A DNA stretch of 64,000 bases, from positions 138,796,397-138,860,396 of the forward strand of contig CM097887.1 of the NCBI GenBank assembly GCA_044892525.1, written 5' to 3'. The DNA comes from Schmidtea polychroa. Taxonomy: Eukaryota. The notes under the pieces are model-generated. The model was not told the origin of the DNA. It did no database searches and was given only the letters and a program-made list of their open reading frames with translations. Position numbers and translations under genes: made by a program. Positions within the stretch are counted from its first letter, which is position 1. The number at the start of each line of letters is the position of its first letter. Shown one piece after another: positions 2,824 through 58,160 of the stretch.

Positions 2824-3124
2824 ACTATGATTTATTATTAGCTAAATATAGACTAAATTAACTACCTCATTTAATGTTACAAACATAAAATAAAAAGAAT
2901 CATTTAGTTGTTTCAGTTGTATTTTTTTGTTACTTGAGAAATATTAAATGTTATGGTTATCTTTTAAGTTTGAAGTTTTTTTATATAATAAATCATGAGA
3001 TTATAAACAATCTATTAAAATTTTTGTTTTTATTTCGATTTTATCCTTTTGAACATGAACCTATTTTCAATAAATTTTTATTAAAAATTTGTGTTAAATA
3101 AATGTAAATATTGATTTTGCTCTA

Positions 3125-3201
<77 letters not shown>
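3125..3201. repeat. (AAT)n microsatellite, about 25 units
   Basis: Perfect trinucleotide run visible in the sequence. Confidence 0.98.
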
Positions 3202-3202
<1 letters not shown>

Positions 3203-4089
3203 CATTTTGTTTATTTTAAAAAATGTAGACAGTTTCCTATATTAACAATCAGATAATTTAAGTGACTATTAATGGAAATATTGATCTCAGATTTTATTTT
3301 TATTGATTACACTAATTTATTTAAAAATGGATATTTTTAAATGAGGAAAGTTAATAATTTGATAATTTTATATTATGAAATATACATGTTTTCAAAATTA
3401 AAACTTTGAAAAGTTGTAATTCATATATGCGCACTGAAACAAATAAATCGTAAAATATAAATTGGTGTTCCATATGTACAGTTGTTTTTATTACCTAAGG
3501 TTTTTTTCGGGTCCTTGTACCATATAAAATAATATAGTATATGGAGAGTTTACTGTATTGATAAGTAAAGATAACTTATCAGTTATTTGCATCACTAGAA
3601 CTACCACCTTTAAAGTATATTTAAAAATGTTTAAATTTACTACCATTTCTGAAAACTTTTATTCAAATAATGTATTTCATTAATCCTTCTTTTTAAATTT
3701 AAAGATTCTAAAGATATATAAAAATCTAACTAGCAAATGCATTTAGTTAAACTGGGTCTATACTAAATCACATTGAAGAATAAACTGTGCTCATTTGTCA
3801 TTTTTTAGTTTATATTACATATTTTACTATAATTGTTAGAATGAAAAATCAACTTTATTTTTTGTTTTAATATGTAAAATAATTCACTTTTGAGTTATTT
3901 TAAATATTTTTATTTATTTATAAAATATATTAAAATAAGCTAACAATTTTATTAATTTCATTAATTTTTAGTGCCTTAATTTAGAGTCATAAAGTAATAG
4001 GACACTCTGGTAACTTAATGTTGATGAGAACTTATTACAACCACTCAAAATTTATTTTATAATAACTTATCCGTGCACATTAAGCATGT

Positions 4090-51200: not shown

Positions 51201-54200
51201 TTTCACGATTTAGCTTACAATCGTTTAGTATCACTTCTTGATACATATCTTGCATTTGTCCTTGCAGATCATGATATAAATAATCTACCTTATTATTTAT
51301 ATAATTCGTGATTTTGATATCCTTTACATGTAGGACCTTGGAATTCCGGATATATTCTCTTGACAGGAAAATTCCTTTATAGTTCGTCTCGTATACTCTT
51401 TTCCCACATTTAGTCTTTTTATCTTTTCGGACAAATCGAATTGCTTCCGTCTTGTCTTCCGATATTAACACTAGAGGTGTGTTTTCCTCTCCGATATCTT
51501 CCTTCTCTTGTTTGTTGATTTTCTTCAGCGTTTTTGCTTTATCCCAAACCTTTTCTGGATTCTGGGAGTCCCGATATTTAGTTCCATTTAATTTTCTAAA
51601 AGGAATTTTCTTGAGGAAAGCCAACTCACAATGATCTCTCATTTGTTCGTAAATTATCGTAGTGGTTCCCGTTTTACAACTACCGAACTTGGCATTGCAT
51701 TGCGGATGTGCCATTAATTTTCCTGTGGCCACATCAAATGTTCCCTCATATTCTCGTAGCTCCACTGAGTAATCTTCTATGTCTACTACATAGGAAACCA
51801 GATTGCTACCGCGAATTTTCTTTCTACCTTCGCAGGTTCCATCTGAGGCAATTGTTCCTCCTCGAGTGATTGTTATTCCCAATGTTTTCCCTATTTCTGC
51901 TGAGATTGATACCTCGTTGTCTATCCTCACGCTTCCTTTTCGAAATGCATCTAAGCAATCTTCGGGCATTATGTTTACCGGCCTTGGTATTAAGGTTGCG
52001 GATAGAAAAGCAGAATAGCTATTACTACCGCAATAATATTCGAACGTAGCTCTCTGAACTCTACATTCCTTTATCGTGGTTCTATAAAATTCACTCTCTT
52101 GGTAGACATAATATTCTACCTTTTCCCCTTGATGAACCTTCTCGGGATACGCCTCTTTGCACTCGATTGCATCTACTAGTGAATATACCCGAGATAGTTT
52201 AGGATTTCCACAGTCAAATACTGTTAATGAATTTGTTTGTTTTAATATGCCCATCATCACTAGGAACATCAGGATCATGCTTGTCATGTTTCCGGTGCCC
52301 GGACTACCATTATTTATGGCTTCTTCTACGACTTCAAATCGCGGTTTTGGAATTATTTCCTTTTCCCAAAATTTGTTTACGGTCATCCATACCTCTAGGT
52401 AATAATCTACCATTTCGACTATTCGATCGATTTCTCGTTCTATAAGCCTTTTATCGTCCCCTATCCGGGCTAAGGCATTTTGGATTAACAATGATAAAGA
52501 TGTTACCACTTTCCCTCTTGTTAACCCTTGCTGCACGAATGCTTCTATGGCCTCCTGGGTATCTCTTGTTGATACATCTTTGGATACTCTGTCCATTGTC
52601 TTCTTGACCTCTTTTGTTATTTTCTTTACTTCGATTCCCTTGATTTTTGGAATTCTCCATTCGGGCCTGATAATCCCGATCATTTGTTGTATATGTTGCC
52701 ACAATAACGACCTTTCTGACGTTGTCTCATCTCCCGCCTGGTCGTCCATTTCTTGAGCTATCCCTGCTAATGTTTTTAACTGAATTTTCCGGATCGTTTC
52801 CGGATTTAACTGCTCCTTGGGTGGAGGTTTCATTTGATCCTTTCTAGGGCGTCCTCGTGCATCTTTTTTCACTTTCTCCGGAGGTTTTTCAGTCTCCAGA
52901 TTTGTTACTGCTTGTGACGTAGTAGCTCCTATGTTTGTTTCTCCTGGATTTAATCTGACGTATTCTGAGAAGTAATCTTCCTCATCAATGTCCACCATTG
53001 GACAGGGATTAATTTCCTCTAATCTTATTTCCTCAATCTCTTCCGCAATTTCGTTTGCTATATCTGGCAGTCTCATTAATGACCACTGGGACTCTGGTGG
53101 AGTTACTGGGATGATCATTACCGTGGTTGTTGCCAGCGGTAGACAACCCACATCCACTAAATATTCATCATCATCCACCTGCCTGCCATGGACCATTATC
53201 AGGAATATACCTGTAGTTTGATCGGTAGCAATTACATCTCTCCTCAATATTTTAACCTTGATATAGCAATTATAAATCATTGTTAATGGTTCTTTTCCCA
53301 TCATTCGCACGTCTAGATTAATGTTGCCTTGTCTATCAGGCTGACTTCGGATAGCTTTCCCATTTTTCTTCATCAGCGCTTCAATTTGCGTCTGGAATGG
53401 GCTTGTTTCCTTTACCACTGGTAGTATAAGTGGAATTATTGCTTCCAACAAATCTACTGGTATACGCAATACTAACATCCAGTCAAGTATTTCCTTTATA
53501 GTTTCTCCATCTCGTGGAGATTTCTGCAATTCCAACCCTAGTCGCTGGGTTAATTGTTGGGTTTCTTCCAATCTCTCTATTTCCATTTGAGTAATCAAGA
53601 ATACGCTATCTTGATCCATTACTGCTACTGGCTTCTGTGCTCTCTTTGCTGTGAGCTTTGTCACTCTACCTGGGAGTATCCCGTTCTGTAGAAGTGTTTG
53701 ATTTGCTTCTAATTTTATTCCACATAAGTATAAGTCATATCCTTGATGCTTAATACTTGTCAATGTTTCCTTTAATTTATCGGCTCGACTTCTTACATTT
53801 ATATCGAGATTATACTCTTTATCCTGTGGGAGTTTTATATTGAGCTGGACATCTTGGAGATCCCACTCATGTTCCAAGAGTTTTCCTAATTTCCTTAGGA
53901 TTTTGTACGTGTCGTTATGATACTTTGGATCATCTTCGACCTGCGATATCAGTTTTACTACTGTATCGATTTCGTGAATTTTAATTTCTGTTTCTCCCAA
54001 TTTTCCCAATTGTCTGGCCAGCTTCTGCTGGTACTCATATCTGGAATCCACCAGTTTTAAACATTTTGTTAGGGTATCCGACCCTTCTTTTACCTTTGCT
54101 TTCCCTGGCAAGGTTCTATCGAACTCGCTTAGTATGGTGGCCATACTAGGTTCATCATCGGAACTCTCCTCTGATTCCGTTTCCTGAAGGTCCTCTCTAA

Positions 54201-55332
54201 CGGAGTCCTTTTTTCTGAGATACTCATCTCTTCCAACTTCCACCATGAAGATGGTGCCTTCTTGGTTGGTCAATCTAGCCAACCTATTCTTTTCTTCCTG
54301 GATTTCCATTTCCAGTTGTTGCAGATACGTTAACCCTTGATCCTGGTTAACCATGAAAGTTGTCTTAGACTTGTTCACATTACCCTTATCGGTATTTTTA
54401 TTGAACTGACTCGTGTTTCCACTCTGGTTCTGAGGACATGACCTCATCATATGTCCGAATTTCCCACATCCGTGACATTTTATCTTTCCTGATGAATTTA
54501 CATCATCTCTTTTGATTGTACTAAAATTATTGCTGTTCTGAGGACTTCTAGTCTTGCAGACCGCAGCAACATGTCCCTTTCGCTTACATTTTTCGCATTG
54601 CAAATTCTGCACTCTACAATTTTCCGCACTGTGGTTATTCCGTCCACATTTGGTACATTGTATACTTTTACGATTGTCCATAATTTTCCTACTGGTACAA
54701 TCTTTCACTATATGCCCTTTTCTATGGCAATTGAAACACTCTACCGGTGTTCTTTCACTGTTTACCAGGAACATGGTTGACTTTTCCAAGCTGCTTTCAA
54801 TTACGACAGCTTTCCGTGTCAATTCGTCAAAATCATCGCTAGTATGTAATATTAGAGCGTTCCTCATTGTAGGAGTAAGTCCTGCCCATAGCTGATCCTT
54901 AACTAACAATTCTGTTGGCTTTGCCCATGTGGTTTTTGGTCCAAATGCTCTTTCAGCAATTAAAGATAGCTGGTGTGCAAATTCCCCCACATGTTCATTG
55001 GAATTCTGTTTTCGATGGTAAAATTGTTGTCTAAATATTCTTCCCGCATCTCCGGGCAATATTCGAGCAGTCATTTGTTCTCTCATTTCGGCCCATGTTT
55101 TCGGTACTTGAGCAACTGGTAATGCCATAATGTCATTATATTTTTCTCTTGCCAGCCCCTTCAAATATATAGGCAGCCTTTGTATCATGATATTATCTGG
55201 ATAGGCATAAGCTTTGGCCATCTGATAATATTCAGACATAAACTCTGGGAATTCTCCCGGATCACCGCTGAATGCCTTTACGGGCAGAGCGGGATATCTG
55301 GCAAATGCATTTACATTAGCTTCCTCTGCCAT
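45271..55332 (-). CDS. Gag-Ubl-Env-PR-RT-RH-IN-membrane protein polyprotein (3353 aa)
   Basis: Four CX2CX4HX4C; signal plus Cys-rich glycoprotein plus TM (52287-50424); DSG protease (49687-49695); YIDD (48436-48447); TDAS..ELEALA..TDHRPL RNase H; HHCC, D..D..E and GPY integrase; second signal and TM. Confidence 0.97.
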   Translation of the reverse strand: MAEEANVNAFARYPALPVKAFSGDPGEFPEFMSEYYQMAKAYAYPDNIMIQRLPIYLKGLAREKYNDIMALPVAQVPKTWAEMREQMTARILPGDAGRIFRQQFYHRKQNSNEHVGEFAHQLSLIAERAFGPKTTWAKPTELLVKDQLWAGLTPTMRNALILHTSDDFDELTRKAVVIESSLEKSTMFLVNSERTPVECFNCHRKGHIVKDCTSRKIMDNRKSIQCTKCGRNNHSAENCRVQNLQCEKCKRKGHVAAVCKTRSPQNSNNFSTIKRDDVNSSGKIKCHGCGKFGHMMRSCPQNQSGNTSQFNKNTDKGNVNKSKTTFMVNQDQGLTYLQQLEMEIQEEKNRLARLTNQEGTIFMVEVGRDEYLRKKDSVREDLQETESEESSDDEPSMATILSEFDRTLPGKAKVKEGSDTLTKCLKLVDSRYEYQQKLARQLGKLGETEIKIHEIDTVVKLISQVEDDPKYHNDTYKILRKLGKLLEHEWDLQDVQLNIKLPQDKEYNLDINVRSRADKLKETLTSIKHQGYDLYLCGIKLEANQTLLQNGILPGRVTKLTAKRAQKPVAVMDQDSVFLITQMEIERLEETQQLTQRLGLELQKSPRDGETIKEILDWMLVLRIPVDLLEAIIPLILPVVKETSPFQTQIEALMKKNGKAIRSQPDRQGNINLDVRMMGKEPLTMIYNCYIKVKILRRDVIATDQTTGIFLIMVHGRQVDDDEYLVDVGCLPLATTTVMIIPVTPPESQWSLMRLPDIANEIAEEIEEIRLEEINPCPMVDIDEEDYFSEYVRLNPGETNIGATTSQAVTNLETEKPPEKVKKDARGRPRKDQMKPPPKEQLNPETIRKIQLKTLAGIAQEMDDQAGDETTSERSLLWQHIQQMIGIIRPEWRIPKIKGIEVKKITKEVKKTMDRVSKDVSTRDTQEAIEAFVQQGLTRGKVVTSLSLLIQNALARIGDDKRLIEREIDRIVEMVDYYLEVWMTVNKFWEKEIIPKPRFEVVEEAINNGSPGTGNMTSMILMFLVMMGILKQTNSLTVFDCGNPKLSRVYSLVDAIECKEAYPEKVHQGEKVEYYVYQESEFYRTTIKECRVQRATFEYYCGSNSYSAFLSATLIPRPVNIMPEDCLDAFRKGSVRIDNEVSISAEIGKTLGITITRGGTIASDGTCEGRKKIRGSNLVSYVVDIEDYSVELREYEGTFDVATGKLMAHPQCNAKFGSCKTGTTTIIYEQMRDHCELAFLKKIPFRKLNGTKYRDSQNPEKVWDKAKTLKKINKQEKEDIGEENTPLVLISEDKTEAIRFVRKDKKTKCGKRVYETNYKGIFLSREYIRNSKVLHVKDIKITNYINNKVDYLYHDLQGQMQDMYQEVILNDCKLNREIVRNRLAISIVNPELVTPMLLEDGMFGRIMGEAIYSYECKPVEVQLARFNQCTLELPVSYQGKLRFVMPVTRKLLEENAKPQPAICNPAISPLYKINDMWISLPERKPSTQRVETLEVTKLKDNLEFQSLDELAKGGIYTPDDIEEARWTLLFPQIRDRGITEIIRTIYHDNLIRPDYNLLFGPEHYKEAAKNVMMKIWGRFTNFGIFVAGCSGIYAIFVILKLIITQLMSTYSIFKIGGWSWKLLLGLCPMCAEFALFKHHRKEIKEIRQKHLVKHEVIGTEMEEYSSYRDDNNSKGGGNGGSRETSSRSNQSRKQNYNKKPNQQQRKSRFKEYLPPYDQSKEIYVRKQSSEGEYDSSDQKFNIRSPRFKRSPRYVQLPTLRSLPSAPNEGREHSRETTLRTGRHQWKIGEDTIFNNLTCSTLPELPKVHYPKEALESIKAKIKEYNPQLSDPELLEAEQTRANTIGISHDTILMVNNPVNLDKKPMIKIRVNRHTVNAVIDSGADGTIIEAKLLNHHELQSLKPAGVKLTGANGSSLNVIGSLSCQIKLCDQELHHDIIVMRSLPAECLLGMDILKRLRGVVFDCASGLLIRARGKKRKIYNDDTAYIDHTTIIPPRAETVCFVATSNNWEGEVVFEPNEKFSEKYNIPVTHSVGLIVNGRIPIRVANLDIKPLYLYPDTRVGRIWKQNEPQATGEGSILTVKAEERDPDIEYYDAPTANSKVLTRKENIQVNMLLRKYDQVFAKHEYDLGKTNLLEHEIVLTNTKPIKLRPYRIPFSLEESVDKQVKLMLKHGIIRHSKSPYQSPMIVVAKKDGSVRLCNDYRMVNEATCKDSHPLPLLDYIYGRMRNARFFSVMDAQKGFYQIKLKDETIPITAFSTSMGHYEYNVMPFGLTGAPATFQRAMNLMLMDVHHAMVYIDDVIVFSPNLEKHLEHLEDVFKRLINANMKVKPTKCKWAEPEVVYVGHIISRDGVKPDPANVEKVKNFPEPKTVKHIKGFLGLVGYYRKFIRNFSVIAFPLTQLEGKNVKFVWGTEQQEAFDMLKEKLINPPILRFPDFERQFLVMTDASTRGIGAVLGQRDDLGDEYAIAYASRGLKPHERNYAVIELEALAIVYAITQFRTYLWGRKIIVYTDHRPLQWLTKHTMDTSKLVRWALILQPYDIEIHYRKGDHNGNADALSRMDQEEEAEDVKEGRLEGTIFTLTREANRLADLMEAQKADEEINVIRQALEAKYVPTEFTKYWEKNKDKFVLEEGLVKYSDVRDNVVMVPKKYREALMLQYHDGALGGHLSSRKTLSRLKQKYFWPSMKQEVKTWCQTCKICITRRNTGKKPHVPMKPMPVPSTPMEMTAMDVLGPFKESNSGNKYILVFCDYLTKWPEAYPVPNHKADTIARIFVEQIVFRYGVPTKLLTDRGADFMSNLLKGINDYFGVLKLNTSPYHPQTDGLVERFNGTLANMLASYVNSGQTDWDIHIPSCLFAYRNAVHEGTGETPFYLMYLRQSKMPVDLLFFPKATQYLDQQDYLMEMRERMQEAWARAGLSIKYNQEASKDYHDRKAKDHGILVGDQVMLESHYNKKGLSPKLMRNFKGPYEVLRTTDTNLILQLVANRKAEPIMVHANRCKKCEISTKGASGNPKVKAPDKQVKPNTTEEPQEHRYPLRSRGVPKSVTFLLIISCMMTLAMAKRDRKAYFQPMAMQVEHLHFIRTYHGISILTTCDNATKFNLHFYNKYLRVRQLDSEEKEWELYDLKAETDYKLHIAASRLYRNGWYTYHVSNWILRTADFTNRISISYGRDKVKFSQRINREEKVKISILDGSSTRGTLWLDQNSPSQERYLNQSVEYSVLVIYYSPRKREDDRWFEVFEEILPLKQPVITEIPPKVVRENMVIHPTMWQHLRQLPPIKQISCPTTPNLTNCCDCNAITNFNTGYILKVPIGVWITVSAVLSLVTTLIAMGIWTKLYFRQAIRAYDGVLMSQL
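50424..52287 (-). other. Class III fusion glycoprotein domain (chuvirus GP / herpes gB-like Env)
   Basis: LTVFDC..ECRV..YYCG..DGTCEG..DCKLNREIVRNRLAISIVNP..GEAIYSYECKPVEV..LPV..GGIYT..LLFP..WGRFTNFG plus TM: the motif series of chuviral-type glycoproteins. Confidence 0.88.
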
Positions 55333-55410
55333 TTGATTTTCCAGTTTTACTCTGGCTCTAGTTCCTAACGCTATTTTGTTTTAATTCAATATATACCCGC
55401 TGATAATTTT

Positions 55411-55428
55411 ATCACGTCGGGCTCACCA
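55411..55428 (-). promoter_or_regulatory. Primer-binding site complementary to tRNA-Trp
   Basis: TGGTGAGCCCGACGTGAT three bases inside the 5' LTR; one mismatch to the canonical tRNA-Trp 3' end (..ATCACGTCGGGGTCACCA). Confidence 0.85.
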
Positions 55429-55431
55429 AAA

Positions 55432-56419
55432 TGTTAGGTTCGATGGGTATGTCTTCGAACTAACACAAAAATGCTCTATCTGACTCCACGTAAATAATTT
55501 ATGCGCGTAGGTATAAATAAACAAGAAATATGATTTAAATATTTATTTTTCAACTAAAGGATTATTCACACGTTTAAATAGATATATATATATATATATA
55601 TAGGTACACCACGCTGCTTTCTCTAAGTAAAGAAATCGGTTATTCAAACCGCCCTGAAGAGTGTTACTAAGTATCAAGGCTGGCCCTAAATGCGCCAACA
55701 GCCCGATATAGGTGAAAGGAAAAAGAGAACGGGACAATCACCGAAATTTTCGCTATAGAGTTAACCCAGAAATTGGTTAACTCTTTTCAAATAGTTATTG
55801 ATAACGACACAACACAAAAATACGTGCTGACGTTATGATATCCCTTATTTGAAATTACTTTAATTTGTTAAAATATAAACCGATTTGAAAACTACTTATA
55901 ACTATTTAAATAATGATAAATACTAACTGATTTAATATCTTTACCAAATAACGTTATAATAGATAATCCACAAAATTAGCTTTCGATCCAATATTTTCAA
56001 TACAAATTCTTCACTTAGATTGTCGATAAAACCAAATTTCCCAAAATTCCAAAACTTGACGCAAATTAGTTGGTTGCTAAAAATAGAATTGACTTTTTCT
56101 TCTCTAATTTCAGACACTGTGGTTTTCTGCCTTCTCACTTCGTCCCTGCTTCTAATTTTTATCTATTATTTATACTAATTTATTTTACGTAATTCTATTA
56201 ATAGTAATTGTTTAATTACTATTTTTATTATATATTTTAAATAATTTCTATAATTCTATTTTTAGTAATTATTTATTACCAATTATATTTTAGTTTTAAT
56301 TTTAGTATTTACTTTCTATTTTTGGTAATTTTAAAATACTATTTTTATTTTAAACCTAACTTTGGTAATTAATTATTATTTTATTTATTATCTAATTTCG
56401 AACGTTCATTTCCGGTTCC
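55432..56419 (-). repeat. 5' LTR (988 bp), outer 15 bp missing
   Basis: Matches the 3' LTR up to CCGGTTCC; the terminal TACTGAACCCCAACA is absent. Confidence 0.95.
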
Positions 56420-56509
56420 GGTTTCGGCAATTTCTATCATATATCTAATGATTATTCCATTAATATCTATTTCTTTTTGATTATTTCCATTTTTTTCTTT
56501 GATAGATTC

Positions 56510-57602
56510 TGTTGAGTTTTTATTTGTAAGTCGGTCCTTTCTCTGACTCCTCGTGTTCTTATTTTACCAAATCAATGAAAACTCAACACAAAATAACTTT
56601 ATTTGATTTTTATCACAATTACAATTTGTCACTATTTGCACCTTTCTCTCACTTCAAATTTATTTCGTTAAGGTACAGAACCAAAGGGGCAATTACCTTT
56701 TCTTGTACGAGTCTAGTTTCTTTATAATTCACAAATTCCTCTTTTGACTTGCTCATTTCTAAGCTCTCCTTTTATACTGTGTCTTTTATACTGTGTCTAA
56801 TTATCTAGCAAATTCAAATTAATTGTTTCCCCGGGCACCCTAAGTAAATTTTGAAAGGTTTGACAATTATTTTAATTTATTTACCCTGCAATTATAAATC
56901 GAATTATTATTACCTTATCTGGTGTCTCGGGTCTCACTGCGCATCGGGTTTTCTTCAGTGCTCGGGTTTCCCATGGGCTCGGGCTTTCCATTGGCTCGGG
57001 CTTTCCATTACAGATTAATTAATTTTAATTAATTTGTTTTTCCTTATTAACTTTTTCTATGATCACCCTATTACATTTTTATTGTGCTTTCTAACCTCGT
57101 CTAACAATTTGGCATTCAACCATACCCAATATTGATTTTTAATTTTCATTAAATTTTAATTAATTTTGTACTTATATTGATTTTACCAATTTTTGTTCTG
57201 CTTTCTGGTACCACGTGAAATTTATTTTGTTTTTGCTCTAACCCCAACAATTCTTTAAGATAGTGCCGTAAGTCTTCAATGGAGAAATTGCACACTTTTT
57301 TGTAATATCTTCTAGTGTTTCGAATATAATTTTATTCATATCCATTTCTTCATTCATTTGATGATATTCTAGGTCATAGTTATCTTTTAATTGGTCTTTA
57401 ACCAATCTTTAACCAATGCTGCTCTTCTTTGTTTTCTTTCCTTTTTCTTTTTTTTGTTGTTTTTTTCTTTTTTCTTTTCATTTTCTTTTTGGGTTTCGTT
57501 TTCTAGTTCTTTTATAGAGTTTTTAGTCTCATTCATTGTATCTTCATTTTCTGGTATTATTTCTTCCATTGGTTGCAACCAGTCTATTTATTGACCAAGC
57601 CT
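56510..57602 (-). other. 5' part of the unidentified antisense insert (decayed ORF starting MEEIIPENED..)
   Basis: Lys/Glu-rich ORF start about 35 bp from the 28S junction; many stops; 17-bp tandem repeat x3 at ~56962-57010. Confidence 0.55.
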
Positions 57603-57723
57603 GGGATAACTGGCTTGTGGTGGCCAAGCGTTCATAGCGACGTCGCTTTTTATCCTTCGATGTCGGCTCTTTCTATCATTGCGAAGTAGAATTGACAAAG
57701 TGTTGGATTGTTCACCCACTAAT

Positions 57724-57759
<36 letters not shown>

Positions 57760-58160
57760 TGTTAGTTTTACCCTACTATATAATTTGTCATGATAATAGT
57801 AATTCTGCTCAGTTCGAGAGGAACCGCAGATTCGGATCACTGGTAAATGTGCTTGATCGAAAGGTCAGTGGCACGAAGCTACCATCCGAGAGATTAAGAC
57901 TGAACGCCTCTAAGTCTGAATCTCGCCTAAAAATCATGATATTTTGTGCCATCCTCGTAATGAGGCAATATTATTATTCATTAACGCAAGTTAGTGGATG
58001 TGGCTTAGCCATATATTTAAACTCTAACCATTCTATGAAAATAGTTTGTATATTTGAATCATTTTTAATGATTTAGGTAAATCATTTGTAGACGACTTAC
58101 TTTACGGTGGGGGAAGCGTAGGAATTCGAGTGGTTATATACTGCGAGATTTCGAACTTCA
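57603..58160 (+). rRNA. 28S: 28S (LSU) rRNA fragment, right part, reaching almost to the 3' end (pseudogenic)
   Basis: GGGATAACTGGCTTGTGG..CTTCGATGTCGGCTCT..GAGCTGGGTTTAGACCGTCGTGAGACA..sarcin-ricin-like TCGAGAGGAACCG..AAATCATTTGTAGACGACTT. Confidence 0.96.

Follow-up and report, generated by a model that had tools for sequence, protein, structure and literature searches.

The window is a 64,000-nucleotide stretch of genomic DNA from Schmidtea polychroa (assembly GCA_044892525.1, contig CM097887.1). The list of open frames and a comparison of the terminal repeats revealed an LTR element of 14.7 kb at positions 41693-56419, and all of its parts lie on the minus strand:

55432..56419, minus strand: 5' LTR, 3 mismatches in 988 bases against the 3' LTR, lacking the first 15 bases of the 3' LTR
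55411..55428, minus strand: primer-binding site, a TGG-starting 18-mer directly after the 5' LTR, presumably tRNA-Trp-like
45271..55380, minus strand: single polyprotein frame of 3369 aa, Gag-linker-Env-PR-RT-RH-IN
54391..55332, minus strand: Gag with capsid and CCHC zinc knuckles (Pfam zf-CCHC E 1.8e-7; Retrotrans_gag E 0.013)
50491..52227, minus strand: Env, a class III / Monjiviricetes-type fusion glycoprotein (PF24664 E 1.4e-85; TM at aa 1597-1626)
46681..49773, minus strand: Pol with protease, RT, RNase H and integrase (Pfam)
42985..45270, minus strand: second ORF of 761 aa, immediately behind the ORF1 stop codon TGA
41693..42695, minus strand: 3' LTR with a purine tract ahead of it

With LTRs, a primer-binding site, Gag and a class III Env ahead of PR-RT-RH-IN, this is an intact Ty3/gypsy element of the GAG-ENV-POL errantivirus type (HSV/gB-type Env), in which Env is located in frame between Gag and Pol. 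The element's own genome was searched with aa 411-827, and all 100 matches that were scored from 1480 candidates showed 88-100% identity. Several of them lie inside open frames of 3090-3369 aa. The element family is thus young and abundant.

The element is flanked by a direct duplication of about 90 bp of host DNA (41602-41692 and 56420-56509; no mismatches in 86 bases), which is not a target duplication of 4-6 bp. This long duplication and the shortened 5' LTR are likely due to an atypical, one-ended integration. The second ORF has an in-frame start after the stop codon of ORF1 (context TGA CAA TTA), and it is possible that it is reached by read-through. It gave no match in Pfam; its middle part is weakly similar to ISG20L2/DEDDh exonucleases (PDB match ISG20L2, E 0.019), and it matches the ORF after Pol in a related family, family D (E 3e-8). 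The polyprotein itself runs past the integrase with a piece of about 320 aa (aa 3050-3369; 45274-46230, minus strand), which lies between hydrophobic segments at aa 3057-3073 and 3321-3341, has no match in Pfam and in this resembles a second small membrane protein by its bounding segments. Upstream of the element, at 57557-57920, we recognized by eye a degraded fragment similar to the 3' end of 28S rRNA and next to it a decayed Polinton-like polymerase sequence.

The linker between Gag and Env contains the features analyzed here:

54238..54261, minus strand: candidate protease site before module 1 (aa 376), the best of 3359 8-mers apart from the training sites
53875..54090, minus strand: helical bundle H1 (aa 431-502), four helices in the predicted model, homologous to H2
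53638..53853, minus strand: ubiquitin-like domain Ubl1 (aa 510-581), beta-grasp, without Gly-Gly
53590..53628, minus strand: inter-module hairpin with a candidate protease site (aa 592), second-best non-training 8-mer of the 3359
53347..53589, minus strand: helical bundle H2 (aa 598-678), 48 bits with a profile free of sequences of this element, best shuffle 7.9
53101..53325, minus strand: ubiquitin-like domain Ubl2 (aa 686-760), beta-grasp, without Gly-Gly
52840..52857, minus strand: AT-hook motif RGRPRK (aa 842-847)
52738..52785, minus strand: helix ahead of the Bcl-2-like fold, which we take to be BH3-like; pattern recognized by eye in this element, family D and P0002
52351..52761, minus strand: diverged Bcl-2-like domain (aa ~874-1010)
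52228..52293, minus strand: hydrophobic segment with a hydropathy peak at aa 1030-1046, directly before the start of Env; predicted Env signal peptide and putative tail anchor of the linker

The domains of the linker and their order are almost certainly as listed. An earlier, sequence-only reading had recognized two ubiquitin-like domains without Gly-Gly, each following a helical block, and had taken them for a duplicated module. Both are beta-grasp folds in the predicted models and are connected to ubiquitin-like proteins by profile homology: a profile of module 2 matches ISG15 (E 1.2e-4) and the relatives match PF00240 (best E 1.3e-5), while the sequence of this element alone gave no Ubl match in Pfam. 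The duplication was confirmed by an hhalign comparison that ties in Ubl1 at 97.3% and by the homology of the two bundles, and none of 26 Ubl copies carries a Gly-Gly after the fold. The TFIIS N-terminal domain (TND) suggested for the helical blocks found no support in profile comparisons. Eighteen helical blocks compared with ten host TNDs (PF08711) yielded an hhalign probability of 0.5% (P 0.11) and a score of 12.2, which is higher than that of all 40 column shuffles (maximum 10.6) but lower than the reversed control (12.9), and there was no TND among the 22 PDB matches of the helical blocks at E<=10.

A single-sequence AlphaFold prediction of aa 351-1047 was unusable (pLDDT 39.5); in a later model the fold of the module was predicted with confidence. 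Structure-database searches with the modules were filled by matches of the Ubl domains, and the linker and H2 had no usable match in the ESM Atlas. A word-based homologue search with linker residues aa 400-800 produced 3351 candidates, none of them at E<=0.001; the relatives of the linker were found via Env and a full HMMER scan (14 matches). In a module tree of 22 rows 3 of 19 inner branches are starred and long branches meet, and the duplication may accordingly have happened once or several times. Atg5 and PI3K were rejected as relatives, because their likeness consists of two Ubls with helices in between (Foldseek TM ~0.2, rmsd 17-25 Å). The Ubls share the beta-grasp of type II ubiquitin-like domains (ISG15 repeats, ubiquilin, Rad23, UHRF1, SUMO-like) with an rmsd of 1.4-2.4 Å in most single-domain matches, and their best sequence-profile matches are ISG15, ubiquilins and UHRF1. 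They differ from these domains by the absence of Gly-Gly, by an Ile44 patch that is not conserved and by a family-specific acidic loop, with 7-24% identity in structural alignments. A cellular protein with the unit of helical bundle and Ubl was not found in the sequence-profile and structure searches.

The absence of Gly-Gly from all copies speaks against the Ubls being conjugatable type I modifiers. The sequence-only reading had further assumed that they engage the host ubiquitin system, and this has become doubtful. At the position equivalent to Ile44, counted like all positions from 41 to 61 without gaps from one anchor, Ile is present in 3 of 26 copies and an aliphatic residue or Phe in 10; Thr, Tyr, Glu, Lys or Asp are frequent, and about half of the copies are polar or charged (Tyr in Ubl1 of this element, Met in Ubl2). 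The Leu8/Ile44/Val70 patch was judged here on its position 44. Other ubiquitin positions are better kept: Gly60 in 26/26, Leu56 in 23/26, Glu54 in 22/26, Asp52 in 18/26, and Tyr55 and Gly47 in 17/26 each. The conserved surface consists of a family-specific acidic loop plus Tyr, Asp and Gly at ubiquitin positions 51-60. We tentatively favour, at somewhat less than even confidence, the interpretation that the Gag-Env linker is a membrane-anchored adaptor with such a family-specific surface and not a ubiquitin mimic.

Ubiquitin mimicry is the first alternative to be weighed. The Ubls would then act as a built-in, non-conjugatable ubiquitin which recruits ubiquitin receptors of the host (ESCRT for budding, proteasome or p97 adaptors) or serves as decoy for host enzymes. 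The fold is predicted to be that of true ubiquitin, and the conservation of Gly47 and the Met at position 44 of Ubl2 are in line with such a role. According to PMC2958808, budding can be brought about by fusing ubiquitin to the Gag of foamy virus, but only with L8 and I44 intact, and therefore the non-conserved Ile44 position argues in part against simple mimicry. The planarian element Burro, as described in its section of PMC6431247, also has MATH and BIR domains, which are linked to ubiquitination. For budding, however, late-domain-like motifs seem to be available already elsewhere in the polyprotein (YPAL at aa 29, LPPY at aa 1729, PSAP at aa 1779). On balance we consider mimicry unlikely.

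The AT-hook, which had been called canonical, stood up to the comparison with the relatives: its core is kept in 9 of 13 linkers versus 0.009 expected. No amino-acid change was found at aa 842-847 among the copies of the element family that were compared. The core is absent from families B and C, P0002 and P0009, and the AT-hook is therefore dispensable in some lineages. The Pfam profile PF02178 gave no match to this element at E<=1 and matches P0014 at E 0.027, which is under the cut-off.

Candidate protease sites were obtained by scoring all 8-mers of the polyprotein against four core Gag/Pol borders, which served as training sites. The three best of the remaining 8-mers are located at aa 376, 592 and 340. 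With a score of 14.2 the site at aa 592 is below the training sites (18.8-20.5), and its conservation in relatives was not seen by eye. A regular expression found 7 sites compared with a shuffle mean of 0.38, but since this expression was written with the sites already known, the numbers do not constitute a statistic.

These results bear on a second alternative, in which a piece of module 2 and AT-hook is released from the membrane and accompanies the pre-integration complex, which it tethers to AT-rich chromatin. A chromatin tether of this type is the p12 protein of MLV. The conservation of the AT-hook core far beyond chance would fit, as would the GC content of the host sequence around the element (~23-34%). 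Against it, the top 15 protease-like sites include none from the stretch that separates the AT-hook from the hydrophobic anchor, 4/13 linkers lack the motif, and the motif could equally be a nuclear-localisation signal or an RNA-binding patch; we regard this alternative as quite improbable. Extremely unlikely, and close to refuted, is the idea that the Ubls are processing spacers cut by host deubiquitinases to free downstream proteins: the mechanism is described for ubiquitin insertions in the polyproteins of BVDV and CSFV (PMC8310069), and BVDV polyprotein fragments were among the viral fold matches of the modules, but the lack of Gly-Gly speaks against spacers of the pestivirus kind, the Ubls are both joined to helical bundles, and module 1 has on either side a site similar to the borders cut by the element's own protease.

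The Bcl-2-like domain downstream of the AT-hook had been missed in the earlier reading. A profile of six relatives without this element detected aa 874-1006 at 24.1 bits, whereas the best of 500 shuffles reached 9.2. A six-row profile including this element matched 105 PDB sequences, and 59 of the 60 matches listed are named Bcl-2 or Bcl-xL; the top match we take to be a schistosome Bcl-2 homologue. The relatives match PF00452 with E values from 9.5e-6 to 5e-3, none of them reaching the curated (gathering) cut-off, and the segment of this element has no Pfam match of its own. Canonical Bcl-2 proteins carry the motifs NWGR in BH1 and W-x-x-x-x-G-G-W in BH2. Neither is present here: TRGK replaces NWGR, and the BH2 segment reads WMTVNKFW with loss of both glycines. 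In families B, C and D the GGW of BH2 is kept and NWGR is not. The profile evidence thus points to homology with the Bcl-2 family over BH1-BH2. A complex prediction of the domain with a host BH3-like peptide, in which the supplied alignment remained unused, gave a score of 0.01. Like viral and cellular Bcl-2 proteins, the domain has segments similar to BH1 and BH2 and, C-terminal to them, a hydrophobic anchor. In contrast to these proteins it is embedded in a retroelement polyprotein, and its tail is apparently identical with the signal peptide of Env.

Further genes of these types occur in the genome. A multicopy Polinton/adintovirus-like element with a small Bcl-2-like ORF was found at L055, L056, L057, L059 and L067 (e.g. 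L056:4206-4661, plus strand, and 3078-3545, minus strand); in this element, ORFs identified by eye as TBP-like and ATPase-like adjoin the Bcl-2-like ORF. Many BIR ORFs of ~392 aa are present as well. Host genes of the Bcl-2 family and genes containing TFIIS-N are clustered as near-identical copies (L036-L042 at G000:C4, ~89.9-90.8 Mb, and L069-L075), which reflects either amplification or a duplication in the assembly.

Two modules are found in this element, in families B and C of the same genome and in P0002, P0010 and P0014; a single module is present in family D, P0003, P0004, P0011, P0012 and P0018. The order of module or modules, AT-hook, Bcl-2-like domain, hydrophobic segment and Env is common to the related families, apart from the missing AT-hook of B, C and P0002. 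P0003, P0004 and P0018 contain one module and the AT-hook ahead of Env and have no Bcl-2 match in Pfam, which suggests that module and AT-hook form the more constant unit and that the cargo is modular. These three also show three or four aspartic-protease-like stretches each, and P0003 and P0004 in addition C2H2 zinc fingers between Env and RT. In family D, a second element follows ~3 kb after the ORFs of the first one (L083:7460-9601; L048/L083, G000:C2:60014600-60031000), which suggests a tandem array. An RT-RH tree of 7 rows, built without an outgroup or Burro, joins this element with P0002 at 85/91 only.

Selection was analyzed at two levels. Between two subfamilies of family D, dN was 0.145 and dS 1.76 for the helical part and 0.129 and 1.07 for the Bcl-2-like domain, while the Ubl gave pN 0.234 and pS 0.77; the dN of this Ubl (0.28) equals that of the unstructured linker following it (0.278). 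Among 14 copies of the element family, the ratio of shared synonymous to non-synonymous variants was 8/0 for U2, 11/1 for H2, 4/4 for U1, 3/3 for H1, 2/0 for the AT-hook and 19.5/10.5 for the Bcl-2-like domain; these copies were selected by their top scores for aa 411-827, a choice that shifts H1 to U2 towards low dN. The modules also stay in frame across families that are about 20% identical in the linker. The proposal of accessory cargo between Gag and Env is therefore upheld, as the domains are kept across families with dN far below dS; the cargo is under purifying selection, and module 1 of the element family is less constrained. That the domains are neutral passengers, i.e. captured host fragments decaying without function, is extremely unlikely: Ubl1 is the most eroded part and the number of modules differs between families, but the conserved frame, the low dN and the confidently predicted fold contradict it, and for module 2 and the Bcl-2-like domain the selection counts refute it.

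Part of this cargo is known from Burro/GYPSM1 of planarians. Its section in Arkhipova & Yushenova 2019 (PMC6431247) describes one polyprotein with Gag, a Ubi2/SUMO-like domain, a BCL2-like domain, an in-frame mononegavirus-type Env and PR-RT-RH-IN, and its authors propose that it meddles with host apoptosis and ubiquitination. The element analyzed here likewise has Ubl, BCL2-like domain and in-frame Env between Gag and PR. It is smaller (14.7 kb with an ORF of 3369 aa, compared with >30 kb and 4873 aa for Burro), and no Pfam match was obtained for MATH, BIR or ankyrin domains, which are features of Burro. On the other hand, it possesses an AT-hook and two Ubls, each joined to a helical bundle; the Burro section of that paper mentions none of these features. 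In its layout it works like the Burro linker and falls outside the definition of Burro. A Burro copy for direct comparison was not found: a BIR search gave ORFs of at most 400 aa and a dUTPase search one gene with a short ORF. The cargo had been called unusual for a gypsy polyprotein; this applies to gypsy elements in general, but the combination of Ubl, BCL2 and in-frame Env has already been published for Burro (PMC6431247, Burro section).

Compact GAG-ENV-POL errantiviruses with HSV/gB-type Env were catalogued in Platyhelminthes by Chary & Hayashi 2026 (PMC13524379). They have the same gene order and Env class as this element, and 4 of 6 Smed errantivirus rows span 14.5-14.9 kb. By eye, the Env segment printed for Smed_errantivirus_4 shares about two-thirds of its residues with the Env of this element, and the segments of Smed errantivirus _2 and _1 are similar to those of families B and C. 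A 9-residue Env motif of this element had no match in supplementary file 3, and the exact family could thus not be located in it. In the main text of PMC13524379 the terms ubiquitin, AT-hook, BCL, Burro and accessory do not occur, and the linker cargo is thus not described in it. Troyka was rejected as a relative, as it has CG termini and no envelope according to PMC12440569. We found no published account of a duplicated module of helical bundle and Ubl, of a conserved AT-hook or of a Bcl-2 tail used as signal peptide; Jurka 2007 and Grohme 2018 may hold more detail. The kind of cargo is therefore known from Burro, while the duplicated module, the conserved AT-hook and the shared anchor are apparently undescribed.

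For the favoured adaptor we propose the following mechanism. The hydrophobic segment after the Bcl-2-like domain would serve as internal signal peptide of Env and, once cut, as tail anchor of everything upstream, and it would provide the Bcl-2-like domain with a tail anchor as present in cellular Bcl-2 proteins. Cleavage by signal peptidase would leave Gag and linker tethered to the membrane beside Env, in place of a retroviral matrix protein. Because module 1 lies between the sites at aa 376 and 592, a soluble module-1 protein is proposed as product of the element protease; the remaining protein of module 2, AT-hook and Bcl-2-like domain would stay membrane-bound. The unit of helical bundle and Ubl would bind a partner via its family-specific acidic surface at positions 51-60. 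Nucleic acid, either that of the core or chromatin at the nuclear envelope, would be held by the AT-hook, and the Bcl-2-like domain on its tail anchor would influence the death of the producing cell. A more far-reaching version, which we consider possible rather than probable, is a matrix-like leader of compact Gag-Env-Pol gypsy elements for control of the host, composed of a helix+Ubl domain that is duplicated in some lineages, the AT-hook and a captured Bcl-2 whose membrane tail has merged with the Env signal peptide. In that case a single cleavage would release the mature fusogen and, at the same time, a tail-anchored regulator of apoptosis by which Gag is also held at the budding membrane.

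Taken together, the Ubl/Bcl-2 cargo of the 30-kb Burro giants is also present in several compact, recently active Gag-Env-Pol families and is under purifying selection in them. The analysis defines small foldable pieces that can be tested singly, namely the module of helical bundle and Ubl, the AT-hook and the putatively tail-anchored Bcl-2-like domain. Should the anchor model prove right, it would account for the coupling of Gag to an in-frame envelope in a gypsy element that has no matrix domain. It would also offer a way in which an endogenous virus-like element might control cell death in its host.
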